Positions 3,211 through 41,794 of a stretch of DNA of 64,000 nucleotides are shown here, in pieces. The notes under the pieces were generated by a model. That model was given only the letters and a program-made list of their open reading frames with translations. It was not told the origin of the DNA and did not search any database. The DNA is from Dictyostelium discoideum (taxonomy: Eukaryota): assembly GCA_000004695.1 (NCBI GenBank), contig CM000151.3:2880001-2944000 (forward strand), given 5' to 3'. Each line of letters opens with the position of its first letter. Position 1 is the stretch's first letter. Both the position numbers and the translations under genes were made by a program.

Positions 3211-3823
3211 ATGTTTAAATCTTTTGATGGATTAAAATTATCGAATTCAGAGTTAGAGGGAAGGTATATTATAGCAAATAGAGATATTGACATTGGAGAG
3301 AGTATATTAAAATGTAAATCATATTTTGCAGTTACATGTGAAGATTTTAAAAAGAATAGTTGTTACAATTGTATAAAGTTAATTAAATCACCATCACCTC
3401 AACAAGTACCAAGATGTTTTGGATGTAATGAAGTTTGGTATTGTAGTGAAAAATGTAAACAAGATAATCAAGCAAAACATCAACATTATGAATGTGCATT
3501 TTTCAACAATATAAAATCACCAAAATTAATTCAAAATTCAAAACTCGATTTCGATTCATACTCTGAAATCAGAATAATACTTGGTTTACTCTCAAGATAT
3601 TATCAAGATAAATTATTAAATAATAAATTCAATTCATCAATAATAATAAATAATCAACAAGATGATGAAGAAGATTTTATAAAAGATACATTGGATGGTG
3701 TATTAGATTTAGTAGAAAATGATATAAATGAAGAAACAAATAGTGTAGCAAAAGAATATATTGATAATATTATTGAATATATTATAAATATATTAAAATT
3801 AACAATAAATAATAATAGTAATG

Positions 3824-14717: not shown

Positions 14718-15038
14718 TTAATCAAAATAACCTAAATATCTCAAGAAAAGAGCCCTGTCTCCTACTTTTTTAATTAAATCTTTCCATTCATATTCAGTGA
14801 TTGAAAAAGCAGTTTCGAAATTTGAGATTGAATTTTCTTCAAATACTTTGGCAATTGCAGTTCTTTGAGTAGGAGAAAGTGGGATATTAATAAACCAAGA
14901 TAAAAAACTGTCATTTAATTCAGGATTATCAACAATCTCAACTCTTGTCAATTTGGCAGAGTTTGTTGGATCAATTTTAATTTTAATATTTTCAGGTTCA
15001 GTTTCTTGAGACTCATCCATTGTTTCATCAATTTCATT

Positions 15039-15073
<35 letters not shown>

Positions 15074-16968
15074 GCTGTTGTTGTTGTTGTTTTTGTTGTT
15101 CATCTTCTGAAGTAGAAGTAGTAGTGGTGGTAGTAGTTGTAGTAGTTGAGGTAGTAATAGCATCTTCATTTGAGAAATCATTATTGTCAATATTCATTTG
15201 ATTTTCAACTAAAACTTCATCTTCTTTTTCTTGTTTTAGAGTTGATTGTTTGTAAATGAATAAAATTGAAGTTCTTTTTTCAACCTCTAAATTTTCACTT
15301 CTGTTAATGAATGATACTGGATCATTGGTTGAACATCTAATGCTTGCATTTTCATTGTCATCTGAGGAATTAATATGAATTGAACTATGATTTCCATTTG
15401 ACATTAGCACAGATTCTAATACATAGGTTAAATCATCACCACCACTACCATCATCATTTTGAATTTCAAATGAATTACCAATTTTAATGAATTTTGGGAA
15501 ATCGATAGGTTTGAAAGTTGGTTCACCATTTTTAATTCTATTTACAGAAACTAAAAGATGAGATGGTGAGCTAATTAAAACTGTTTTACGTTGAACTTGT
15601 TTATTACAATTTTTACATTGCTCAATTGAATTATTTTGAGAGTAGAGTGTGTTGGCAATATTCTCTTCGATATTATTTGAATCAATGTTTACAGTAAAGT
15701 CCAAAATAAATTGTTGAAGATTTGGTTTTATTAATTTCTTACAAACATTACATATATGTTGACAACTACCAGTGAGAGGAGTGAATATGGATGATGATAT
15801 TTTTTTAATTGATTGTAAAAGTAAAGCTAAAATCTTTGAAGGTGATAAGAAGGATGAAGATGGAGTTGAATTTAATAATTCCATTAATTCATCATTTGCT
15901 TCAATGAATTCCTTAAATAAAGTATCGACTATGAATGGTTCTTTTAATTTTTTACTTGAAATCGATTTGAAATGTTGTAACTCTGTATATAAAGAGAAAG
16001 AGAATTTAACATCTTCAATATTTAATAAATCAATTAAATTGAATCTTATCCATTCTAATAAACTCGTAGCAAAGATTGGTATTGACGATGATGATGATGA
16101 TGTTTTGATAGTATGATCCTTTAATATTAACATAGTTTTAATTAATGATTCATCCTCTTCTTTATCATTTCCATCATTACTAATAACTTTAACATTTTTA
16201 GTTAGATATTCATTATTGTATGATACTAATTCTTTAAGTTTCAAATTTTGATCAGCTTTTTTAAACATTGGATTAATGGATCTATTATCTTGAGATTGTG
16301 AAGGGGTTGAAGCTCTTGGATTGAAAAATTTCTTTTTAGTAGTGCCATTTAAATCATCAATTGTTAATTCTTTGAAAATGATTAAACCACCACCACCACC
16401 ACTACCAAATCTACTATTTTTATCATTTGTAACTTCACCAATTTCATCCAATTGAATGTGTAAAACTGTTAGAGTTTCTTGAAGTGTACCCATAAATGTT
16501 GCATAATAACTTGAAGTCATACTTGGTAAAACAAAAGTAAAGATTGATAAATTGGTTGAAGGTTCTTTGATATCACGTAATTGGAATTTATTAATTAAAT
16601 GTAAAAGTGGTAAATCTGGTTGAATGGATCTTGCAATTCTCTTTGAATCTTCAGAAGATGCTTTTTGAATGATTTTACCTAAATAATCTTTCCAAAGAAT
16701 TGAACGTTCTCGAATATCAAATTCACAATCCTTTAAGATACTCTCTGAAATTGATTTAAATTGAATTAAATAGTCATTGTTTGGTTGAACTGGGTCAGGA
16801 ATAATTGAACTATAATAATATCTAAATCCAAGGTAACTATTTATAAATATATCACATAGTGATAATACTTGATTTACATTAATAACTGGTAATAAATCTT
16901 TAATAGCAAAATCTAATTTAAATGATTCAAAAACATCATCACTCATTAATTCAATATTATTATTATTA

Positions 16969-17066
<98 letters not shown>

Positions 17067-20000
17067 TTTAAAATTTGAAAATTGTAATTGATTTAAATTT
17101 AAAGTTTTAATAAAATCTAAATTTTCTTGTTTTGAAATTAAAAGTAAAATTTGAATTAAATATCTACCAAATGATTCTAATTGATCATTATTTAATTTTG
17201 ATTTACATCTTGAACGTAATTTAATCTTTATAGTTTCTTCTATTTCATTATTAAAACCTGTAAATGTTTCAATCTTTTCAATTAATTCATTTAGTTCTTT
17301 AATAAATTCTGGTTCAACAGTTGGTTTTTTAATTTTATCTAATAATTTTTCATTAACTTTAGTAACTACTTCAGTTAAACCATAATCTTCATCGTCATCG
17401 TCATCATCATTATCATTATCAACTTTTTGTTCTTGTGATTTTTTAATGGTTGGTTGTTTTTTGAATTTTAAATCTGTTTTAAATCTAATTAATTGATTTC
17501 TAATTACTTTACCATAGAGATATTGTAAGATGATTGAATTTTGAATTAATGACCAATCGATAGAACCTACAAATTTAGATTTATCAAGTACAAAGTATTT
17601 AGAGATCCAAGATGAATAATAATGATAGAAATCTTCAGGTTTAAAGTTTGCACCAATTAATAGATTATCACTACCAATTGTTGATGGAATATCACCAATA
17701 TCGATTTCATTATTAGTTCTAGTGAAACTCTCAATGATTTCAAGGATATCTTCGGGTAAATTGCCTTTATCCATTGAGAGTTGTAAAAGTTTACTTTGAG
17801 TATTTGCTAACCATTGATCGATTACACGAACGATACAACCAGGTTGAGTATCATGATAAAACATTTGACTGAGTCGTGATTTTTTTTCAATTGATGGTAT
17901 GATCGCTTCTGAACGTAATGCATTTGGACAAATTTCAATCTCTATATTTTTAATGATAACTGGCCAAATATTAAGCAAATCTTCAAAAGCTTTCTTTAAT
18001 GGAGCAACTGATTGAATGGTTTCATATTTATTGGTAATTAAATATTTAATACATTTTGTAACTGATTGGTCAATGAAATCTGGTGGTAATAAATTTGCAG
18101 TGAAACGATTAAAAGTATCAAGGAATTGAATCAATACTTTAAAGTGACTTGAGATACAAAGTTTGTTAATTTCATTGATAAAGGTTTTAATAATAAGGAA
18201 TTGTTGTTGTTCAGTTGCAGTAACCAATGTTTGAATGGTGAAATGAGGAATTATTAATGAGCTATAATTTAAAGTATATAGAGTTCTAAGCTTTAACAAT
18301 GAATCAAATTGTGGACTTGATGCAACAGTTTTTGCAAGGAAACGATTTTTAGAGGCGTTGGCATCATTTTTAACGGCAGCAAAAATTTGATTTAATCTAA
18401 CTTCATATGCATGTGATAGTTGTGCATTTGGGAAATTATCTAAAAATACACCTTGATTATGGAATGACTCTGACCAAATTGCCATTGTATAATTTGAAAT
18501 ATACATCCATGGATCTAATAATAAACCTTTAAGATCAGGATTTAATTCAATCTCTGTTATTGAAACCAATGCTCTATTTAATACATAATCGGATGGATTT
18601 GCAGAATCTTGAAAATTAATGAAATGACTTGCTCTATAATCTTGGAATGTATATTTTCTCATTGAGGCAGTGAATGAAATTACAGACCAAGTTGAAGCTA
18701 CAATTGAAAAGAAATCCAAACTATTACCATAATAAGTTTCATATTTTGCATTGCAATCAACCAATTGACCACCTCTTGAACCTGGGAAATATTTACCTAA
18801 ATTAAACATAAAAGGATCAACAGCACCAACAATAGCTTTTGAAAATTTACTAAGATGAGTATTTTCAGAACCAATTGAAATTGCAATGAAATTTATAATA
18901 ACATTTGCAACCTTTAATTGACTTTGATCAATTGAGGAGAGAATTTGATCGATTATGAAATTTCTATCGAATTTTCTTGTTAATATCTTTTTATAATGTT
19001 CTAAATAATTGAGTAAACCGAGTTGTTGTTGAATTACAGCATCATCAATGATAGCAATGATAAAGTTTATGAATTTTTGATTCTCTTGAGTTTTTAAACC
19101 ATTACCATTTGAAATATATTGATAAGATAAAATGAATAAAATGATTCTAATTAAACCTTTTTGTTTTGGAATTTTTGAATTAATTTCAAACAATTGTTTC
19201 AAAGAATTTAAATCTGCTAATTCAATGAATTGTTTTATATGAATATAGGTATCATTCTCTAATTTATAATGATCATCATAAACAAATGGTAAATGAAAAG
19301 TTTGATCTTTTGTAACTAATAAATTGATTTGATATTGTGATAAACCAATTGAATTCAATATCACTGGTGATTGGAATAAATCTAGGATCTTCTTTTCTTG
19401 AATGATTCTTGTGAACAAATAAACTTGATAAATGGTTGATTGTAAAATGGTTGAATCATTCTTATTATTTGATAGAATCATTCTTAATACATTTTGAATA
19501 TCTTTATTATTGATTAAACCATAGGTTGTCTCTAAATCATTATGATTTAATAAATCTGCAAAATGTTCCAAGAATATACAAGACAAGGATATCAATGATA
19601 CTCTTTCGAAAATGTTTACATTGATATCATTATCATCTTCATCAATTTCAAATGTTGAGAATTTACCATACTTTATAAAGAATTCTGATATTAAAGATAT
19701 GATTTGATTTAATTTTGCTTTAGATTGAAATTGTTCAAAAGAAATATGATAAAGAATATCAATTAATGGTTGATTTGGTAACAATTGTTTTCTCAATAAA
19801 TCCAATCCTAATTTGAGTTTATGATTTTGTGGAATCAATACTGATAATTGTTCAATTGTTTCATTGTTAATATAAGTTAATGGACCACTATGAATAGTTT
19901 TTAATAAAGATTTATTAATTAAGCTACCTTGATTAATCATATCAAATAATTGTAATTTCTTTTCTTCTCTAATGATACCATTATTATTGGTTATAATATC

Positions 20001-22518
20001 TTTAATTATAATACAACTCCAACCAATTGGTATTGAATTTATCAATGAATTTGGTATGGTATAATCATTATTTACAATCTTTAAGAAAGAATAAAGATTA
20101 TCATTATTTAATAGAATTAATGGTTTGATGATTTCTAAAATTAAACTTTTTGATGGTTTTGGTTCAATTTTCATTTCATTATCAATAAGATTGAAATAGA
20201 TATCCATTACTTTCAATAAATCTAAACAACGGAAATTTGGTAATGCACCAATTAAAATTTTCTTATTTTCATCTGGTAATTCGGAATTGTTGAATAAAAT
20301 CTCTACGAATAATTGATAGATTGAATGAATGTATGCTAATAATTCTAAAACTTCAATTTCATTTGGATCTGTTGTAATAAAGATTTCATCAACATTAATT
20401 CTATTGAAAAGATCTCTAACTATTTTAACCCATACAATGATTTCCTTATTTTGATCATCACCTTGTTTAATATTAAATGAAATTTGATCAATTTCTTGTG
20501 AAAGTAATTCAATTGTTAAATATAAAAATTTAGTTTTAATTAATTTAATATCATAATAATTAATATTTTTCTTTTCATTATTGTTTTGATTGTTATTGTT
20601 ATTGTTACTATTATTATTATTATTTTTAAAACCATCATTATAATAATCATCAAAAAATTCATCATCGTCATCATTATCATCATCATCATCTTGATTGTTT
20701 TTAAAAGTAATTAATATCATTTCTTTACATCTTTGTAATGCATATTCTTTATATGTTAATTGAAGTAATGGTGAGATGATATTCTTTAGGAAATCGATTG
20801 TTTCAACTTTAAATTCTTTAATGATCCAATATTGAATTATTTTCATTGAATTGGTAAATACTTTTTCATTAATTTTTTTAGTTTTATTTGTTGACTGATC
20901 AATATCATCTTCTTGATTGACGATTGTATAGGGTAATAATGAATCCAAGATTGAAATGAATAAATCTTTTGTCTCTAAACTTATACCCATAGTTCTAACA
21001 ACGAAATCATGTTTATATTGTTCGAAAAGATTGTCACTACCTGCAATGAAATGAATTAACTCTTCAATTGGATGATTGATAATATAGGAATAAATTTCCC
21101 CGTATACGACCTTGGGTTGTTTACTTTTAGATTCCAATATGATATTATCGAAAATTAAACTAAATTGACTTTCAAAATAATCATATAATGGTAGAGATGA
21201 TGGAATAGTTGTAATCTTTGGTAAAGATAAATGAATTGGTTCTAATCTTCTTTCAATACCAATATTCTCTGATAAATTATATTGTAATTTTGAAGTTTTA
21301 ATGAAAAGTTTAATTAAATTATAATTTTCTAAACTTGAATTTAAAATCATTCCATCAGTTGTTGATTCTCTAAGATTTCTTTTCTTTTTATTTCTATTAT
21401 TATTGTTATTATTATTTGAAACTTTTTCAAAATCATCTCTATAATTTTTTATAATTTGTAAAATTGTTGGAATTGAATTATAATTACAAATTGTTTTAAT
21501 AATATTTGAAGTTACAGGATAAAGATAGTTTGTAATTGAAGATTTAATAGCATCAATGAATGCACTTTGTTCTTTACCTGATAGAATACGTTGACAAATA
21601 TTTACTAAAATTCTTTGGAAAATCTTTTGATCTAACCAATGATCAGTGAAATTTTGAATGACAATTTGATACCATTCTGGATTTGTAGTGAAAATTTCAT
21701 TTAAAACCTCTTGTCTAATTGAAGCATCTTTATAGAATTGATGAATTTGAACTCTATTATTATTATTATTATTATTGTTATTGTTATTATTGTTGTTATT
21801 ATTATTTGGTGTTCTAATTGGTATCATTGGTAACTGTTTACAAATTATATCTTTTGAAATGGTTTTCAATTGATTCTTAACCATATCTCTTAGAATATTA
21901 TTAATTGGTTTTTGATTCTCTCTAAAATCATAATGATAACTTGTATTATTAAATATATTGAAATAATCATTTGAAAAACCATTGGTATTAGTTGTTGTAT
22001 CAACACCACAACTTGCAGCAATCCAATCTCTAATATCTTCTTCAATGATAGTTTCATAATGTTTATCAACTTGATCCTTTTCAAATTTAATACCTAACGA
22101 ATCGATATAAGTGAATTCGATTTCATTTAAAAAGATTGAATTTAATTTTAATGATTGTTGAGATAATGAGTATTCTGGTGGGTAATGATAAATTGTGATC
22201 AATGATTTGGATTCATTCATATCCAATAATAATTCAAATATATAATTCACTTGATTTTGATTACAATTGATCATATCTGCAATTACAATTAATATTCTTT
22301 CTTGTTTTGAATTTTTAAATGATTCAATAATCTTTGAACATTCTAAACTTGATTGAATTGAATTTAAATGAATGATTTTAATGAATTTTCCATCAATTGG
22401 TTTTTTATTACTACCACGATTAATCTTTGAAGGTGATCTATCAATATTGAATATTTCTAATGATTCACTTAAATATTCAAAATCGTCAAAATCACTTTCA
22501 CTTCCACCATTATTATTA

Positions 22519-22553
<35 letters not shown>

Positions 22554-25500
22554 TACACTATCTAACATTATTTGATCGAGATTTTCATTATCACCATCAT
22601 CATCTTTTGAAACCAATTTCTTATTTATAATTGATCTAACTAAATTATCACCTAAAATTTCAAGTAAAACTTCACCATCTTTAAAGGAAGTTAATGACAA
22701 AGAAGTTCTAGTGAAAATTACCCATTTATTTGAGATATATTCATTCATTGAATATTTAGTTGTAAATAAATTCTTTAAAAATCTAACTATACTAAAATGT
22801 TCTTGATTGATAAAATATTCCTTTAAATAATTAATTGGATAAATTGAATCTTTAATACGAATGATTGATTCTGGTTTTGCAATTTGTAATAATTTAAAAT
22901 TGAATAATGTTTGTGGTTCATTTTTAATTGAAGTTGCTGTCGATGTTGGTGAACTTGATAATAATTTATAAAATTCTCTCTTTTTAGAATTGGTAGTTGT
23001 TGAAACCATATCATAATTTTTAAAGAATTGATAAATTAAACTTGAACAAGTTTCAGTTGAAGAAAATCCAGCTAATAATGATTTTTTACTTGCTTTATTA
23101 TGAAGTGTATCAACGAAATGATTGGAGTACTTCACAAGGTTATTAAATAGATCGGTACTTGATTGATGCTTACTAATGAATTCTTGAGTTAATAAATCAA
23201 TTGATACTGTATACTTTTCGAATCTATTTAACCAAGGTAATTGAGTATTCTTTAATCTTGACATTGGCATATGAATGATAACTTTAAAGTCTGGATGAAC
23301 TGTACAAAATACTGAATGAGTACCAAAACTAATATTTGCAACCATTTGTAAACGATCACGATGTTCTGAAGAAGGTGTTAAAATAAAGTATCTATTGAAA
23401 ACTTCATAGAAACATGAATCAATCTTTTCACTATTGACCAATACAACGGTACCACCAGTTTCCATAATTGATTTAATAGTTGAAACACATTCTACCAATG
23501 ATTCCTCTGAACTATCATTTTCAAAACCACCAACTCTAACAATTGTTAAATTTTCAATACCAATCTCTTTTAGAATTGAAATGGATGATTCATTCTCTGA
23601 AGGATCAACGATCATCATATAACGGAAAGTTAATGAACTTGGATCTTGATTTGGTTTGATAACTTCAGCTAATGAACTCTTTATGTTTGCGATTGTATTA
23701 TCTATTGTGTAAAGTGATGCTGGTGGATCAACGTTTTGCTCTCTAAAGAATAATTGAGCCAACTGAATAAAATCTTGATTATTAATACCTTTGAAATTTC
23801 TTTCCAATGAATCCAATAATGCCAATGGGAAAGGTCTTTCAAGGTCAAGTTCTCTTTTAAGATGTCTTAAAAAGAAACAATAATCTCTTTGATGGAATAG
23901 ATTCTCTTTAGTATTGATTGAAAATTCATTAACTCTTTTGTAAGCTCTACATAGGGCATCACGAATTTTCTGTTCTTGAGCATCGAGATCATTTCTATTA
24001 TTATAGAGACAACCTACAACCAATGCTTTTTCATCATCCTCTGTCATTTTATCTGGATGAATTAAAATCATCATACGATTGGTTTTGGCAGCATCTAAAA
24101 TCTTATTTGATAGAATTACAATACCAACATTATCTTTGGCTTCACCAGTTTTATTTCCAACCTTATCTAAATAGTCATGTAATACTTTCATTGGTGAATT
24201 ATTTTCATCGACTAAACCAGCTTCATCAAGGAAAACCACGGATTTATATTTCTCTGCTTTCATAATTTTTTCACGATTAATTGCTTGTTCAAATTTAACT
24301 TGAATTTCAATATCTGAACTATGTTCAGTACATTGATATCTGAATGGTTCTGTCATTGGAATATGAGCCAATGGTGAATTTGGTTTTTGTTTTTGTGTTG
24401 GTGAATTAATATTATCCAAAACGATTGTAAATGAAATTGTTTTTGAACAACCTGGTGGACCAACAACCAATAAGGGTACATTACAATTGATCGATACGAT
24501 AGTACAGAAAACATTTAACATCAATGATTCAGTTTTAGCAATACCATCTGGTAATTGAATGAAATCACGACACAATGATGAATACTTTTTATGGAATATA
24601 TAAGTGAATGGATTTCTACCACCAGCATTATCTAAATTATTGCCACGTTGATCATTATAATAATTTGAAAATATTTCTAATATACCTTGTCTATTTTTAC
24701 CAGGAATCATTCTAATGATATAAGTTAAATACATTGAAATGATTAATGATATCCAATGTCTATCTTCAAAATTTAATTCTCTAATTTCTCCACAATTTAC
24801 TAATGATTTACCACATTGATCTTCCATAAAGAAATTATAGAGATCGATTGCTCTCATGATATCTCTAATACTAACATGAGTACGATTTTGTTTAGTTTGA
24901 CGTAAATAATCTTGACCCAATATGATACACTCTTGAAGTTGATTGGAATGATGTGGTTGCATTTTAGTTTTCTTTTTAAATAATGTTGACAAGAATGAAC
25001 GTTCACTATCATCAAATTCACCAAAATCAAAATATAATTGTTCCATTGATTGTGGTGTTTCTTTTACAATGAAATCTTGATTACCTGATGCTGAAATTTG
25101 ACCAGTGAAATCGATTGAATCATTGGTTGATGATTTCATCTTTGGATTCATTGCGCCAATGATACGAATATTTGATGATGCCAATTGTTTACCATCCAAT
25201 GTACCATCAATGAATAACTCTGTAATGATTGCACAAGTATCGATAGGAGCAGTATTAAATTCATCAATGAAAATTACGAAAATCAATGATGAATTAATGT
25301 TTAATAAATCTTTTGCTGTATTTTCCAATTCTTTCATCTTTTTTAAGAATAAATCACTTGTATACTTTTCATGCATAATTAATCTTTGGAAAAGACGTTT
25401 AAATTTAATGGAGCCAATATCTTTGATTGCTTGTTCCATAGTTTCTTTTGAATCAATAGTTCTTGTATTCTTTTTTAAAGAATCTAATAATGAACCTTCA

Positions 25501-28500
25501 CCAATTTGAATTAATGGATTAACTAGGACCTTTAGAATGAATTGTCTTATATCTTGAAATAATAAATTTGAAACCTCTGCATTGATATCTGAAATTTTTG
25601 AAGCAACTTGAACCATTTCAGCTATTTCAGGATCAAATAGCTCTTCAGTGAATTCTTTTGGGAATTGTTTCATTTTTGCATTTAAAAATTGTTTTAAATC
25701 AAATAGAATATCTGGTAATTCATCAATCTTTGCATTGATGATAGCAGCATAGAAAAAGAAACTAAAACTTTTACCAGTACCTGTATCACCTTTTAAAATA
25801 ATAGCTCTTTGATTTTTAATCTTTTCATGAATGATTAAAAGACGAAGTGCAAACTCTGGTGTCAAACAATATCCATATTGTTTGGTTAAATCTGATACGA
25901 TAAAAGTACGTGAAACAATACCAAATGATTGAGAGATGGTAGCATAAAACATTGAAGTATTGGCCGATGCAGTCTCTAGCGTATGTAATGATGGTACTTT
26001 GTCATATAGATCTGTTTTCTCTCTAAAATCAATGAAATCAATTTGAGTTTGTTCAAATGGTCTATTTGCATCATCGGTTATCACTGAAATTGATCTTGAG
26101 ATAATTAATGGTGGATTACGCCAAAGTGTTTTCACTGAACATATAATTGGATCTGCCAATTTAACACATTCAACAACAAAGTATTTATAGAGAATCTCTG
26201 GTGTAACTTGTAATTTCATTCCCATTTGAGCCAAATATTTATAGTAATTGATATATTTATCCAAAAATAATAGTCTATCATTTAAATAGGCAAAGAAATT
26301 CTTTTGGCATTGTTTATAACGATTATCACGTAAGAATGGAATTTGAGCACCATAAATTGAAACTACATGATCATAATAAACATTACCAGGTATAACTTGA
26401 TTGTTTGTAATGATTGTTGGATTCGTTGGAAAAGCACCACCATTTCCTCCTAAATAAGACATACATTTCATTTCTTGAATACCATAATTCCATGCTAATT
26501 CATAATTTATCACCTGAGAAATATTGTAAAGTAATGATAATGCATCTTCTGGTTTATCATTTGTTGTTTCTTTTAATTGTGTACCAATCTCTAAAAAGAT
26601 ATGAATATTTAAATGTTCACTTATATTTATAATTTTACCATTATCATAAATGTAACCATAGGTAATTAATGGATAAATAAATGTATAAAATTCTAAATAA
26701 TTGCAATAAGGTGAAAGATTTATATGAAGTAAAACACCTCTAATTGTATTGTTATTACTTTGTTGTTTTTTCAATAATAATGAATTTATTAAACCATAGA
26801 AATCTGAATAATTTGTACCAGGTCTAATTGATAAACGATATGCAATGAATTGAGATTGTTCCACTTGTTTCTTTTTTAAATCAATATATAGAGTTTTTCC
26901 AGTACCAAATTCACCAGATAATAAATTCAATTCACCTACCCCATACTTTGAATTTGTTTTTAACCAATATTGTTTTAATTGTTGATATGTACAAGCTAAT
27001 GGTTCTTCCCAACGTGGTAAAAACTCTGTGAAATTATCATTTTGACTAAATGATATAATGTAAACTCTTGCTAATTTTGATAAAGTTTGATTTGAAAAAT
27101 GTTCTCCAAACCAAGATAATAATGACTCTTTCTTTGTTGGTAATCCGATTAAAAAGAATACTCTATCAACTACATTCTCTACTAAATAAATGAAATCATC
27201 AAATTCATTTCCAAATTTACTACCATAGAAAACTTGACTTGGATGTGGGAATACCATTAAATTCATTTGAGTTATAAGTAAATCTAAATTCTTTTTATTT
27301 TGAACATGATAAAATTGTGGACCTCTATCATCACTACTATCTTCAATATCATCTTGATCTTGAAAAGTTTCATCAAATAAATTAAATAGCTCCATAATGA
27401 AATCTTTAGTTGATAAATTTCTATTTAATTTACCTTGATCTTGAGCGTTAACAATTGTTTTAAAAATTGTATCATTATTTAATTGATAAACTTTTGAATA
27501 ACAATATTTAATATATGATGAAACAATTGAAACTAATTCTTTATTTCTATTATTATTATTGTTGTTGTTGTTGTTGTTGATAATTATTTCATCCTCTTGA
27601 ATTAAGAAATTTTGAACCTTTGTAAATAATGATGAAATACCTTGATTTCTTAATAATCTAATTCTTTTTGAAAATGAATTAATTAAACCTTTCCATTCTT
27701 TAATTTTTTCAATTAATTCAATGTTATATTTTTTAATATCATCCATTAAGTTTGGTGTAATTTTCAACTCTATAAATTTATCTAAAAATTCGTAGTGAAA
27801 CATTTTTGTTGAAAGTATTGTGTGACTCTTATAAATTGAATGAAGTTCATCATATAATTTTTGAAATTCATCAACGGTAGCACGTTGAGCTTCTTTTACC
27901 TTTGCCAATTTCAAACCACGAATATAATCATCCAATGTTTCAGAGGAATATTCTATACCATTTACTTTAATATGCCAAACTGATGTTGAACTACCAATAA
28001 CATTTGAACTAAAGATTGAATCTGTTAACATTTCTTTTAATCTTGGTAAAATGGTTGAAATACTATATGCACCACCTGCACTTGAATATAATGCTCTCAA
28101 TTGAGGCATATTATCTTGAAGGAAACGAATCTTTTGATTAATATCCTCCATATCATGATGACGGAATAATTCTTTCATAACTGAACAAAAATTACCAAAT
28201 TTATAAGATTTTTGTGATGTTGGCACTGTTGGTGGTGGTGGTGAGGTTGCTGTTATGTTTTGTGAGGAATCATTCATTAATGAATCTTTATATGATTGAT
28301 TTTCAATTACTATTGGTTCAACAATACTAAAAGTTAAAACAGCATAATCAATTAAATTACTTGAGAAAGCATCATTTAAATTTGTACTAATTAATCTATT
28401 TCTTTCTGTGAAGTCCTTATTATCTTTAAAAGTTGAGTAGAATTCAATCAATTCCATTTGAATTACACTAAAGAATGGTATTTGATGATATTGTAATTGA

Positions 28501-29876
28501 CCTATGGATTTTTCTATATCTTTTTTAATTTTGATTGAATCATCATATTTAACCTCTGTACTTAGTTTTACTCTGAGTAATGCCTTTTCAATTGATTGTT
28601 TTGCTTCATCGAGATCTTCGATTTTAATGATTTTGAAACGATCAAAGAAATTAAACAATGCATTGATATTTGATTCAATACCAAAGATAGAGATTGCCTC
28701 CTCTATAAACTTTTTAAATTGTTCAACCTTGATGTGAGTTTGAACCTTTTTATTATCTACTGGTGTTTTAAAATTACACAATAAATCTATTTCACATCTT
28801 AAATCAATATCTTTACTTGAGAGTTTCTTAAACATATCACAATTCAACTTGATAGATTGAGTATCCATTTTCACAAGAGAGTCAAAGAAATTTTGTGATT
28901 CTTGACAAACAGCATTTATATCTTTGGTGGTATCATTTTTTACAAAGTGACTGAAGACCACAAAAAAGAATTTAGAGTTTTTGACAATGAAATATAACAT
29001 AAATTTAATGGATTCATCATTTAATGGTGTTTTGAAATTATCAATCTTTGTTTGACGAATATGTTTAAGATAACTTTTCACAGTATCTTTTGGTGAGCAA
29101 TGAGTACCTTCACTCACTAATTTATTGAAACCAAATTCTTGATTTAAGTAATTCTCTAATTTTTTATATCTTTCAATTCCATTTGAATATTCTCTAAATT
29201 CTTTAATAAGTTGATCTGAATCCATCAAACCTTGGTGGTTGAAATAAAGCTCTAAATTTACTTTTAAAGTATCATAATCTTTTTTATACTTTACAATTTC
29301 CTTAGAATACTTATTAGCTATCTCTATAAATTTTTCTTTAATCTATTATGTTAAATTTTAATAAAAAAAAAAAATTAATTGGATTTCGCACATATACTCT
29401 GAAAAAAAAAAAAAAAAACTTACAATCTCTTTAGTTTGAATAAATTCAACCATTTGTTCGTCCCATTCCAAAGTTTTTAAATTATTAAAACGATAAATAA
29501 GATTTTGAGCGTAAGTAGTATCACTGTTTTTAGATACCTGATCCAATGCATTCTTTAGGCAATAATTTGCTAAAATAGAAAGGGAAAGAGGTAGACTTGT
29601 GGCTCTTAAAGAGAAAAAGTTGAAAAAGTTTTGATGTGGTGAAGCTTTCTTTGTAATTTCAAAAATGATATGTTCGCATAATTTATAGAATTGTGAATAA
29701 TTTTTTTTTAACTTTTCTCTTTCGAATTCAAAAGAACTCTCAATATTGGCCAAATCTGAAATTAATGGTTCATAGTAATAAGACAATGAGGTTGGAGCAA
29801 ATTCAAGGTATTGATGGTCTGGGTGCAATATTGAAAATGTAGCAAACAAATCCAAAACTCTATTTATCTTCTCCAT
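14718..29876 (-). CDS. Giant (~5,025 aa) multi-P-loop AAA+-type NTPase; candidate RNF213/mysterin-, midasin- or dynein-class. 2 exons: 29424..29876 and 14718..29342.
   Basis: 14.6-kb uninterrupted ORF (track 14718..29228) that stays in frame upstream to the acceptor 'ataatag|ATT' at 29342. A 77-nt intron with a GTAAGT donor (29418-29423) separates it from an upstream exon whose first in-frame ATG is at 29874-29876. Walker A sites: 'GEFGTGKT' (~26900), 'GDTGTGKS' (~25775) and 'GPPGCSKT' (~24450). Walker B: 'IFVIFIDEFN' and 'VVFLDEAG'. 'IIGAMNP' resembles the dynein/midasin '..MNP' motif. C-terminal poly-Gln and poly-Thr, then 'CQHICNVCKK..CKNCNKQ' Cys pairs. Confidence 0.7.
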
Positions 29877-32928: not shown

Positions 32929-32991
<63 letters not shown>

Positions 32992-33031: not shown

Positions 33032-33212
33032 ATGTCAACAGATGGCCAATTAAGATTTTCATTAGCTGAAAGAAAAGCAGGCTCAATGAGCACCCCAGGA
33101 GCTGGTAATTCCGTTTCTGTATCAAATCTTGAAGATTTTAATGATGCAGTTAAATCTGTCCACAAAACAGATAGTGCCACAAATTGGTTATTAGTTGGGT
33201 AATTTTATTTCT

Positions 33213-33244
<32 letters not shown>

Positions 33245-33616
33245 TAAAAAATCTCAGATATTAATTTTTTATTTTTATCTTTTTTTTCCTGTTTTTTTTT
33301 TATTTTTTAAAGTTATGATGGATCACCAGATAAAATTAAATTATTATCAACTGGTACTAAAGGTATTAATGAATTAATTGAACATTTTGATGATACATCA
33401 ATGGTTTATGCAATTCTCAGAGTAGTTGATCATGTTGATGGAATTCCAACTGATAGATTCGTTTATATTACATTTATTGGTGATAATGTTAAAGCCATTG
33501 AAAAAGCCAAATACAGTGTAAATAAAACATCAGTTACAAAATTACTTGGTCATTATAATGTTGAAATCATTGCATCATTAAAGAGTGAATTAAGTGAAAC
33601 TGAAATTATGAATTAA
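33032..33616 (+). CDS. Coactosin-type ADF-H (actin-depolymerisation-factor homology) protein, ~156 aa, 2 exons: 33032..33198 and 33313..33616
   Basis: ATG at 33032. Exon 1 '..FNDAVKSVHKTDSATNWLLVG'. Donor GG|GTAATT; acceptor tttaaag|T; phase 2. Exon 2 'YDGSPDKIKLLSTGTKGINELIEHFDDTSMVYAILRVVD..RFVYITFIGDNVKAIEKAKYSVNKTSVTKLLGHYNVEIIAS' is a typical ADF-H C-terminal half. The TAA stop is at 33614-33616. Confidence 0.7.
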
Positions 33617-34005
33617 AAAAAATAGTTGAACAAGTTAAAACATCATCTGATCCAATTAATTGGATGTTAATTGGTTATGAAGATAAAGAAAGATTAGGTT
33701 TAGTTGGTAAAGGTACTGGTGGTCTTCAGGAGTTAGTCTCACATTTAAAGGATCAAAATGTAAACTATGGTATCGTTGCGACCACTGATGTTATCGATGG
33801 TATCGTTCAACCAAAACATGCTCAAATTACCTTTGTTGGCGTATCAGTTTCACCAATGGTTAAAGGTCGTCTAACAACTCATAGAGGTAAGATTGATGAA
33901 TTCTTTTCACCAATTCATGTTTCATTATTTTCTGAAAATCCTTCACAAGATTTAACTGATGAAATTTTAGCTCAAAAAGTTCAACAATTAAAAGGTATGA
34001 AATAA
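33604..34005 (+). pseudogene. Second coactosin-type ADF-H unit directly downstream. It is in the +1 frame and has no initiator ATG at its N-terminus. It is either a truncated/pseudogenised tandem duplicate or part of an unusual two-domain gene.
   Basis: The frame opens immediately after the TGA at 33601-33603: 'NYELKKIVEQVKTSSDPINWMLIGYEDKERLGLVGKGTGGLQELVSHLKDQNVNYGIVATTDVIDGIVQPKHAQITFVGVSVSPMVKGRLTT..'. This matches the Abp1/coactosin pattern 'W.L..Y....L.L.G.G.GGL.EL...L....V.YG'. The first in-frame ATG is the internal Met of 'NWMLIGY' (track ORF 33664..34005). Confidence 0.4.
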
Positions 34006-34215
34006 GAGAAGAAACTTAAATAAAACAAAATTTTAGGTTTAATCAAAAGTTGTAAAATTATTAAATAAAATTCAATTTTTTTATACACAAAAGTAAAGGT
34101 TTGGGGGGTGGAGAAAATTATGAAAGTAATGTTTTTTTTTATTTTATTTTTTATTTATAGAACAAAATTAATATTGTGTTTGTTTATTTTTTTTATTTTT
34201 TTATTTTAAAATTTT

Positions 34216-36403
34216 TTAACTACCAAGTGAACCACAATCTAAATAATAATCAATTCTTTCACCACCATCTGAATCTGAATCTGAAATATCTGAATCATCG
34301 TCATTATCTTCATTACTTTGATTATTACCATTATTATGATTTTTATCATTTAATGAGGATTTCTTAACACTATTACCATGGTCACCAACTGAACCAGATT
34401 CATTACCTCTAATTGAATCATCTTCATGATCATGTTCATCATCGCTATTGAATGCTTCTTCATCATCTTCAATTGATTTATTATTATTATTTAAATTTTG
34501 TTGTTCTTCTTGTATTTGTTGCTTTTTTTGTTGTAGTTGTGGTTGTTGTTGTGATTGTTGTGGTGGTTGCTGTTGTGGTTGTTGTTGTGGTTGTTGTTGT
34601 CCCTCGTTTGGTATGGTTTTAATATTATTATTATTATTATTATTTTTACAATCATTTTCATTGTTACCATTCATAGTGGTATAATTATGATTACCAGTGG
34701 TATTATCAGTGTTATTCTTTATATTGTTATTGTAGCTGATGATGTTGTTATTGATACAACCATTAATATCACTATTTTCGGTTTCATTTTTTATATTGCA
34801 ATGATTGTCATTGCTATTCTTGTATTCATTATCGTTACTACTACTATTATTATTTTTATTGTATTCAACCTTAATTAATATATCGCTATTACTATTATTA
34901 CCATTTACAACATTACAATTATTACTACCCTCATTACCATTATTACTATTAATACTATTATTACTATTAACACTATTATCACTATTATCGTTATTATTAT
35001 CAACATTACTATTATCATTATCATTATTATTATTATCATTATCATTATTAATATTACTAATATTATTACTATTATTATTATTATTGTCATTATCATTACT
35101 ATTATTATCAACATTACTATCACCATTATTATCACCATTATTATTATTGACATTATTGTTGTTACTATTGCTATTATTATTATCTACATCGCCGGTGACG
35201 TTATTATTTCCATGAGGACTAACAGTTTTTTTTTTTTGAATTAATCTCAACATACCCTTTGATGACCAAAATTGATGTTGAATTTGTTCATATTGATTAT
35301 ATAACATATTCATTCTAAATAGTTTTTTTTTTTTTTTTTTTTTTTTAATGTTAGAAATTATTATTATTATTAAAAAAGGATCAATAATACATACTTATCA
35401 GTTTCATGATTATAATAAGATTCACCACATTGTACTTTTCTCTTTAAACAAGCAAAGATGGTGCCATGAATTGTAGCTAAAGATCTATCAATACTTGTAT
35501 TATCAATTTGTGGAATCTAAAAATATATGTATCAATATTTTAAATATAAATTGGAATATTTATTAATCAATCTTTCTATCAATCAATATTTCTATCCTTA
35601 TATATTTATATTTAAAAAACTTACCATATGTTCATCAGCGCCATGACATAAATGATCATTAATGATACGAATATTTTTAAAGTATTTTGTATATTTATTT
35701 TGATGAGGATCGAGAGTCATATATTTTGAACGAATTGCAAATCTTTCTTTATGTTTTGCTTCATTACTAATGTACATTAAAAATGGAATACAAGATGGAT
35801 GTTTCTTTACTAATCTTAGAATGAGTTTAGTATCTAAATGAACACCTTCAACAATTAATGATTCTTTTCTCTTTTCATAATGTCCAATTAAAATATCTAA
35901 TTTATTAAAAATCATTTCATTTTGTGCTTCATAACCTTGTAAAATCTATAAAATAAAATTAAAAATAAAAAGTTATTAATTATATATATATAACATTTAA
36001 AAAAAAAAAAAAAAAAAGAATTAATTACTTTTTCTTTATGTGATAATGATGGATTTGAAATGATTTCACCAGCATGATAAGTTGAAGCCCAAAGTATAGG
36101 TGATTCTTGTCTACTAATGAATTTTCTTAGTAATTGTCTAATGTTATCAGTAGAGATAACAGCAGTGAAACCGATTCTTGAGGCTAATAAAGCAGTGAGT
36201 GTTGATTTACCACAACCAGATGTACCACCCAATAAAATGGTAAAAGAATGTTTTTTATCTTGAACTTCACATGATACAGGGAAATCAATTATATATTGTG
36301 GCTTTGAATATTGATAACATGATAGTATGTGACCAATGATATAATAGAAAATATTTCTTTGAATTGATACACAATAAATTGGTGGTTGTGTTGTTGTTGT
36401 TGC

Positions 36404-41092: not shown

Positions 41093-41794
41093 TTACAGAA
41101 ATTTGTTGACTGTAATTAATAAAATACCATTAACATATCTTGCTTTAATTGTATCTTTGTCAACAGTATTTGAATTAAATTCCAATACTCTTTTGTAAAC
41201 ACCAATTGATTTTTCATGTCTTTTAAATTCACACATATTTTGAAATAATGGATAAACTGATTTCTTCTTTGCTACAATTGTAAGAATATTGTTAGTGAGA
41301 TCAACTTTAACATCATCTTTATCGACCCCTGCTATCTCTAATTCAATATGAATAACCTTATTAATTTCATGAATAAAAGTAAGTGGTTCAAAGAAAGTGA
41401 ATAATGGAATATCCTGAGATTTCAATTTTTGATGAGGTGGTTCATTATTTCCATTACAATCTTCACATTTATATGGTATTGAATTATTCAACCAAGATGA
41501 AATATTTCCAAATCCATTTTCAAAATCATTTTCATAAAATTGAGCCTTATTTTTCTTTCTAGTTTCTTTTTCTTCGTTTCCTTGGAATGATGAAGAAGAT
41601 AAACTTCTTTTATAATTACATATTTTATTATTATAATTTTTAAAATTGTTTTGTTTGGGATTTTTAATTAAATAAACCAAAGAAGAATTTTCATTATCAC
41701 TATTATATTGATATTTATAATTTGTTTTTTGAATGGGATTAAAATTGTTAAATTGTTTTATTTGGTCTTGAATTTGGTAAGTAACTTCTGTCAT
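41093..41794 (-). CDS. Small heat-shock protein (HSP20/alpha-crystallin domain), 233 aa, single exon
   Basis: ATG at 41792-41794. C-terminal alpha-crystallin domain '..IHIELEIAGVDKDDVKVDLTNNILTIVAKKK..GVYKRVLEFNSNTVDKDTIKARYVNGILLITVNK'. The N-terminal half is N/S-rich. Confidence 0.75.
   Translation of the reverse strand: MTEVTYQIQDQIKQFNNFNPIQKTNYKYQYNSDNENSSLVYLIKNPKQNNFKNYNNKICNYKRSLSSSSFQGNEEKETRKKNKAQFYENDFENGFGNISSWLNNSIPYKCEDCNGNNEPPHQKLKSQDIPLFTFFEPLTFIHEINKVIHIELEIAGVDKDDVKVDLTNNILTIVAKKKSVYPLFQNMCEFKRHEKSIGVYKRVLEFNSNTVDKDTIKARYVNGILLITVNKFL

Follow-up and report, generated by a model that had tools for sequence, protein, structure and literature searches.

A stretch of the Dictyostelium discoideum AX4 reference genome in which two ADF-H domains stand head to tail in different reading frames is very probably the AX4-lineage allele of a conserved two-ADF-H gene, broken by a recent 199-nt deletion; this would be an ordinary mutation that calls for no unusual mode of expression. 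Relatives carry the gene intact, with both domains in one open reading frame (ORF). Relative to them, AX4 lacks 199 nt between two defined boundaries, a stop codon results at the junction, and the same lesion is present in two independent assemblies. Positions given below refer to the window, by which we mean the whole 64,000-nt stretch of DNA that was analysed (GCA_000004695.1, contig CM000151.3, positions 2,880,001 to 2,944,000). The locus lies in an AT-rich region and has the following features, which are listed together with the position of the lesion.

33032-33198, + strand: exon 1, with the start codon, the LRFSLxER motif of the N-terminus and, from ADF-H domain 1, the first helix and strand
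33199-33312, + strand: intron (GTAATT...AAAG, 114 nt), the gene's one genuine intron
33313-33616, + strand: exon 2 up to the new stop, encoding the remainder of ADF-H domain 1 and ending ...SELSETEIMN, then TAA
33594-33625, + strand: 32-nt GT..AG stretch, called an intron in the 275-aa model ACTFIT_002973 (positions 3559-3590 of the ACTFIT locus, L004)
33610-33613, + strand: deletion junction, with one surviving GAAT; 199 nt of linker-coding sequence missing relative to positions 3591-3789 of the ACTFIW locus, L003
33614-33616, + strand: TAA stop made by the deletion, from T 33614 on the GAAT side and the AA of a former TTA Leu codon
33613-34005, + strand: orphaned ADF-H domain 2 (LKKIVEQVK...QQLKGMK, then TAA), in the -1 frame relative to domain 1
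33619, + strand: C-to-A difference (CAA Gln in relatives, AAA in AX4) that produces an A8 run
34019-34024, + strand: first AATAAA after the new stop, with none in 33522-34018

An earlier interpretation made from the DNA alone, which we call the sequence-only reading, held that the first unit is a complete gene with a TAA at 33614, and this is borne out. Removal of 33199-33312, the sole GT..AG option that yields an open product, gives a 156-aa ORF (33032-33616, stop at 33614-33616) with one intron of 114 nt; the equivalent intron measures 126, 110, 91, 89, and 82 nt in five related genomes. We judged ADF-H membership by a score above the Pfam gathering score of 22.4 bits together with domain coverage, and both units belong to the family by this measure: domain 1 matches PF00241 (Cofilin_ADF) with E=2e-24 and 86 bits over profile positions 3-123 of 125, and domain 2 with E=1.4e-15 and 57.6 bits over positions 2-125 of 125. 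The second unit was rightly described as open after TGA 33601-33603 and without a usable start; its frame begins directly after that codon, at 33604, and runs for 133 codons to TAA 34003-34005, and its first ATG, with no earlier start codon, is the Met of an 'NWM' motif, at 33664. The chance of an open frame of 133 codons is approximately 4e-6 to 9e-6 at the local base composition, and the remaining two frames across the same stretch contain 13 and 17 stops; the domain includes the peptide IDEFFSPIHVSLFSENPSQDLTDEILAQK. Two details required correction. The second unit had been placed in the +1 frame relative to the first, and is in fact in the -1 (equivalently +2) frame, the two occupying window frames 1 (unit 2) and 2 (unit 1). 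The A8 homopolymer had been placed at 33616-33623, and lies at 33615-33622. As this run begins inside the TAA, an indel there cannot fuse the frames, and a fusing shift must lie within 33604-33613; repair of the homopolymer was rejected as a candidate on this ground.

Comparisons of sequence and of predicted fold place both domains in the coactosin/Abp1/drebrin class of ADF-H domains, the class of coactosin (D. discoideum coaA and human COTL1), Abp1, and drebrin, in agreement with the earlier assignment to the coactosin/Abp1 type. By sequence, the top PDB matches are drebrin, drebrin-like protein, and COTL1, followed by Abp1; by fold (Foldseek), COTL1 and drebrin match best, with target TM-scores of 0.86-0.89 at 25-30% identity, and cofilin, GMF, and twinfilin domains are found at 13-20% identity. 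We modelled the intact 352-aa protein with AlphaFold from an alignment of 11 sequences (mean pLDDT 73); both ADF-H folds are confident, and residues 166-213 form a disordered linker. In this model the last helix of domain 1 spans residues 151-162, such that the 156-aa AX4 product stops halfway through it, and domain 2 begins with a short strand (216-217) and a helix (220-231). The AX4 product resembles coactosin in being a single-ADF-H protein of coactosin size; coactosin differs from the gene in having one domain and no N-terminal LRFSLxER extension, whereas the ancestral state of the gene is two ADF-H domains, and Abp1 and drebrin carry further modules such as SH3. Twinfilin resembles the intact gene in having two ADF-H domains and a linker, and the full-length twinfilin 7ccc_B tops the Foldseek results by E-value because it spans both domains. 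However, its identity is 11%, its domain placements fail to superpose (rmsd 28 A), its C-terminal tail differs, and no twinfilin chain was recovered by sequence against the PDB at E<=0.001. The gene is thus not a twinfilin, and the description "twinfilin-like" in the sequence-only reading gives way to the coactosin/drebrin/Abp1 class.

Comparison with orthologous loci in other Dictyostelium species, a check proposed with that reading, recovered an intact two-domain ORF in relatives and located the deletion. All relatives recovered have both domains in one frame, in proteins of 338-354 aa with a linker of 45-70 aa. The close relatives came from a profile search of 90%-identity clusters; they are listed here together with the A. 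subglobosum protein, which came from the HMMER scan described below.

D. discoideum ACTFIW_011983: 352 aa, cluster of 5 sequences, both domains in one ORF
D. dimigraforme ACTA71_012569: 352 aa, both domains in one ORF
D. firmibasis RB653_010616: 354 aa, both domains in one ORF
T. lacteum DLAC_07918: 341 aa, both domains in one ORF
A. subglobosum SAMD00019534_054320: 343 aa, both domains in one ORF
D. purpureum DICPUDRAFT_88560: 300 aa in the public model, 352 aa once an in-frame 156-nt 'intron' is restored
D. discoideum ACTFIT_002973: 275 aa in the public model, carrying the AX4-type junction

The public D. purpureum model, on GL871119.1, drops positions 2088-2243 of that locus (L007; 156 nt) as an intron. 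Read in frame, this stretch has no stop and specifies the conserved linker (GDSKPTT...GPSVNTKSVGLTFKNESE), and the real protein most likely has 352 aa. Orthologues are labelled at their sources as 'hypothetical protein' or, automatically, as 'Coactosin'.

The two-domain layout extends well beyond these species. The Acytostelium subglobosum protein is 57% identical to domain 1 and 56% to domain 2, and several further protist proteins also hold both domains in one ORF; the single-ORF arrangement spans dictyostelids to Diphylleia. A metagenomic eukaryotic contig (P0001/L001) has both domains in one frame with a linker of approximately 50 aa, and shares the N-terminal 'RFSLxER' exon and an intron near the same place; the window's domain 2 aligns end to end with that of P0001, including the C-terminal KxxxxKGxK tail. 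A query was built from an alignment of P0001 with the window's domain 2. In a full HMMER scan of 1.84 billion representatives with a profile of P0001, 171 proteins had E<1e-30, each with 2-8 matched ADF-H stretches, and the closest family matches to the window were two-domain proteins.

An intact orthologue matches Cofilin_ADF in two stretches, with 141 bits. The long forms read in a single frame as ...SELSETEIMN-KIQDASGSRNR...(S/T-rich)...GPAVNTKSVGLTFNNESE-LKQIVEQVK..., and their linker, which across the orthologue group starts K[IV]xDxSGSRxR and joins the domains in frame, is absent from the window. The group's domain 2 with its C-terminal QxLKGxK tail is present in the window, though out of frame; over its whole length it is ~99% identical to that of ACTFIW and 32-56% identical to those of distant relatives. 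With the linker absent and the frames broken, the window holds a disrupted allele of the two-domain gene, not an intact member. In other respects AX4 and the intact orthologues are alike: they share the N-terminal motif, both ADF-H domains (95-99% identical between AX4 and orthologues from group-4 species), the C-terminal tail, the intron position, and the neighbouring genes. AX4 differs in lacking the 66-codon linker plus one base, and it follows that domain 1 alone remains in the ORF. Synteny is kept in four related genomes, with a ~5,500-aa gene upstream and a ~850-aa gene downstream; the large gene (~5,500-5,600 aa) adjoins the ADF-H gene in the D. discoideum isolates, D. dimigraforme, and D. 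firmibasis.

The lesion itself can be delimited precisely. In a DNA alignment of the window with the ACTFIT and ACTFIW loci, a clean 199-nt gap separates the window and ACTFIT from ACTFIW. GAAT stands at both ends of the deleted segment in ACTFIW, and the ACTFIW sequence minus those 199 nt is the AX4 sequence bar one base; the deletion has five equivalent placements, which corresponds to a 4-nt microhomology. As 199 = 3x66+1, the loss shifts the frame and generates the junction AAT|TAA, in which T 33613 completes an Asn codon (ATG AAT|TAA). The residues covered are 157-222 of the intact 352-aa protein. Downstream of the junction, the CAA-to-AAA change at 33619 is the one place where the protein sequence of AX4 domain 2 departs from that of the intact D. 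discoideum allele. Judged by its GAAT-flanked ends, the 199-nt loss fits microhomology-mediated end joining or replication slippage, and as a mutation it is an ordinary microhomology deletion.

Domain 2 shows no sign of decay. ACTFIW (GCA_054859355.1) is a more divergent isolate, with flanks 88-93% identical to the window by megablast and a synonymous divergence of 0.02-0.08. Against ACTFIW, D. dimigraforme, and D. firmibasis, the pN/pS of AX4 domain 2 is 0.040, 0.026, and 0.041, and that of domain 1 is 0.14, 0.11, and 0.09, respectively. Relative to ACTFIW, domain 2 has 7 synonymous changes and 1 nonsynonymous change, and AX4 has gained no stop codon within it. These ratios indicate that strong purifying selection has acted on domain 2 until now, and that for nearly the whole period since these genomes diverged it was constrained at least as much as domain 1. 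The low pN/pS together with the single replacement suggests that the loss is very recent; the undecayed state fits a very recent event, and would equally fit continued expression. The ORF is broken relative to intact, selected orthologues and the lesion recurs in an independent sequence, as expected of a recent truncating allele, and the allele is a strain- or lineage-specific truncation.

The most probable history is as follows. In its intact form the gene encodes an N-terminal LRFSLxER peptide followed by ADF-H domain 1; a linker of ~66 aa, mostly disordered, leads to ADF-H domain 2 and a C-terminal QxLKGxK tail. In the AX4 lineage, a 199-nt deletion between two GAAT tetranucleotides took the second half of the last helix of domain 1, the whole linker and, from domain 2, the short strand at its N-terminus and the opening turn of helix 1. 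The frame was shifted, and translation would end at residue 156, at the stop made by the junction. The AATAAA at 34019-34024 is probably the original poly(A) signal of the gene. As it is the first such signal and lies beyond domain 2, the mRNA probably still extends across domain 2 as far as the former poly(A) site, with domain 2 as 3' UTR, where it would go untranslated. The product would be a 156-aa single-domain protein of uncertain activity, and the event is presumably too recent for decay to show. Scans for bacterial-type promoters and terminators and for tRNAs, and a search for AATAAA across the whole window, gave nothing informative.

Among the alternatives, the one that survives best, improbable as it is, holds that 33594-33625 (32 nt, or options of 41 or 50 nt) is a genuine micro-intron whose removal yields a linker-less 275-aa two-ADF-H protein. 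The sequence-only reading had found no plausible GT..AG pair over the stop. Frame-restoring pairs do exist, and those that spare both domains measure only 32, 41, and 50 nt; longer in-frame pairs (77-600 nt) were also considered, and were set aside, as each would remove part of domain 1 or domain 2 and none has an equivalent in relatives. The 32-nt stretch has GT..AG ends, its removal restores the frame, and one public annotation (ACTFIT_002973) uses exactly this model; domain 2, moreover, is undecayed. Nevertheless, restoration of the frame is a one-in-three chance for any given GT..AG pair, and the stretch falls short of a spliceosomal intron both in length and in being coding in relatives. 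The gene's genuine intron is 82-126 nt across six genomes, introns in Dictyostelium have a mean of ~142 nt (PMC3946582), and among ~119,000 introns of <=40 nt annotated in NCBI Gene only 15 have been validated (PMC4675715). The 'splice sites' are ordinary codons in the intact allele (AGT GAA...; CAA ATA GTT), which makes the 'intron' only a by-product of the deletion, and the spliced product would be without the end of the last helix of domain 1 and, in domain 2, without the strand at the N-terminus and the first turn of the helix. On this comparison the 32-nt intron was most likely put in to patch the annotation, probably as an artefact of gene modelling guided by homology. If it were truly spliced, coding sequence would have turned in a single step into an intron shorter than any spliceosomal one known from Amoebozoa. 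Domain 2 would then have survived the deletion, and the AX4 lineage would produce both domains in one protein that lacks the linker, in place of a truncated one.

It is still less likely that the AX4 reference is wrong, through a cloning deletion or mis-assembly, and that the true AX4 gene is intact. AT-rich DNA encoding serine/threonine repeats was unstable in the clone libraries of the AX4 project, and the missing piece is just such a low-complexity linker. The junction recurs, however, in a separate assembly, ACTFIT (GCA_054883475.1), which has the identical junction, TAA, and A8 run. This assembly matches the window at 99.6% identity across 6,994 aligned positions. It shows 3 mismatches and 3 indels, one of them a 4-nt difference in a run of T within the ADF-H gene's own intron, and is therefore an independent assembly of a very close relative or of the same lineage. 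The junction is thus not a sequencing error, even if ACTFIT is of the same laboratory lineage as AX4, as it may be; the agreement has no bearing on the frequency of the allele in nature. The earlier suggestion of an error hiding a twinfilin-like gene thus proves right in that the ancestral gene has two domains; what separates the two frames is the 199-nt deletion repeated in an independent assembly.

We give even less credence to the possibility that domain 2 is made by a non-standard route, whether by -1 ribosomal frameshifting, by reinitiation at ATG 33664, or by a splice from 33105 to 33625. Domain 2 is intact, and the genuine donor at 33199 has the same hexamer, GTAATT, as the candidate donor at 33105; a splice from the latter to the AG at 33625 is in frame and would give a 150-aa product in which the N-terminal peptide is fused to domain 2. 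No relative's gene model has a counterpart of such a splice, however, and reinitiation would forfeit helix 1 and the conserved NW motif. Programmed -1 frameshifting is recognized by three features: a slippery X XXY YYZ heptamer where the frames overlap, a stimulatory structure beyond it, and a frame break that is conserved in relatives. The sole permissible shift window, 33604-33613, contains no such heptamer, the folding of the next 120 nt is no more stable than that of shuffled sequence (z=0.36), and the relatives read straight through, and so need no non-standard route at all; the unconventional expression envisaged in the sequence-only reading finds no support here. Finally, although the ADF-H units do stand head to tail, the notion of two separate genes from a recent tandem duplication with a decaying second copy has a negligible probability and is refuted by the orthologue comparison, since the units are only 26% identical and each is nearer its counterpart in other species (47-57% for domain 1, 32-56% for domain 2), the two-domain single ORF is found from dictyostelids to Diphylleia, and domain 2 is under strong purifying selection; of the pseudogenised duplicate proposed earlier, the recency of the break stands, and the units are ancient domains of one gene.

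The deletion allele is comparable to the strain-specific loss-of-function alleles (unitary pseudogenes) of laboratory reference strains, in which, as here, a recent frameshifting deletion has struck a conserved, selected gene and the lesion is fixed in the reference lineage. It is unlike typical unitary pseudogenes in that the upstream half of the AX4 gene stays a complete ORF with a whole domain, for which reason the allele may be a truncation with residual or altered function, not a null.

AX4 seems to lack a coding annotation at this locus. Exact look-up of the 156-aa, 113-aa, and 71-aa products in the protein collection found no record, and neither this look-up nor the profile search that found ACTFIT and ACTFIW returned an AX4 (EAL/XP) protein from the locus, which leaves the gene effectively invisible in the AX4 proteome. 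Among single-sequence homology searches, domain 2 gave no match and domain 1 gave one metagenomic match. These results must be interpreted cautiously: word-indexed single-sequence searches missed proteins with 99-100% identity (P0160, P0168) that the alignment query alone found, and their silence is therefore not evidence, such that only the profile search carries weight. Literature searches found no description of the gene or of tandem coactosin-type proteins, and nothing relevant on the new Dictyostelium assemblies.

If the deletion reading is correct, the standard reference strain holds a broken copy of a conserved actin-binding gene under strong selection, and axenic AX4-type cells may be natural mutants for this ADF-H gene. 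Two public models also illustrate how annotation pipelines mishandle the locus, in ACTFIT by patching it with a 32-nt intron and in D. purpureum by removing an open, conserved linker. Ordinary as the phenomenon is, it is worth knowing in annotation and in cytoskeleton studies that rely on AX4.

Several observations concern the surroundings of the gene and its wider family. A perfect 57-nt T homopolymer occupies 32932-32988, ~45 nt upstream of the start codon, and is followed by an A-rich leader. Farther upstream, a 4,836-codon ORF on the - strand (14718-29228) forms part of the gene of ~5,500-5,600 aa, which continues to about 32000. The window lies on AX4 chromosome 2; two ORFs elsewhere in it match AX4 proteins exactly (the SET/MYND protein DDB_G0273589, and Atg4), and look-up of the neighbouring ORFs 34216-35313 and 41093-41794 returned no record. 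At the N-terminus of the gene, LRFSLxER is present ahead of domain 1 in the window gene and in all orthologues; positions 33047-33085 (LRFSLAERKAGSM) encode the conserved form LRFSLxERxxGS, N-terminal to domain 1 and in the same place in all orthologues. By analogy with the phosphorylation of cofilin at an N-terminal Ser, its basic-x-Ser pattern might speculatively be a regulatory phosphorylation site. Lastly, protists possess a family of proteins with 2, 3, 4, 5, 6, 7, or 8 tandem coactosin/Abp1-type ADF-H domains in ~330-1,500 aa, with examples in Planoprotostelium fungivorum (PRP81054.1) and in transcripts of Diphylleia rotans (representatives P0009-P0158). Its members too go by 'hypothetical' or, through automatic naming, 'Coactosin' at their sources, and a study devoted to these tandem coactosin-type proteins may be worthwhile.
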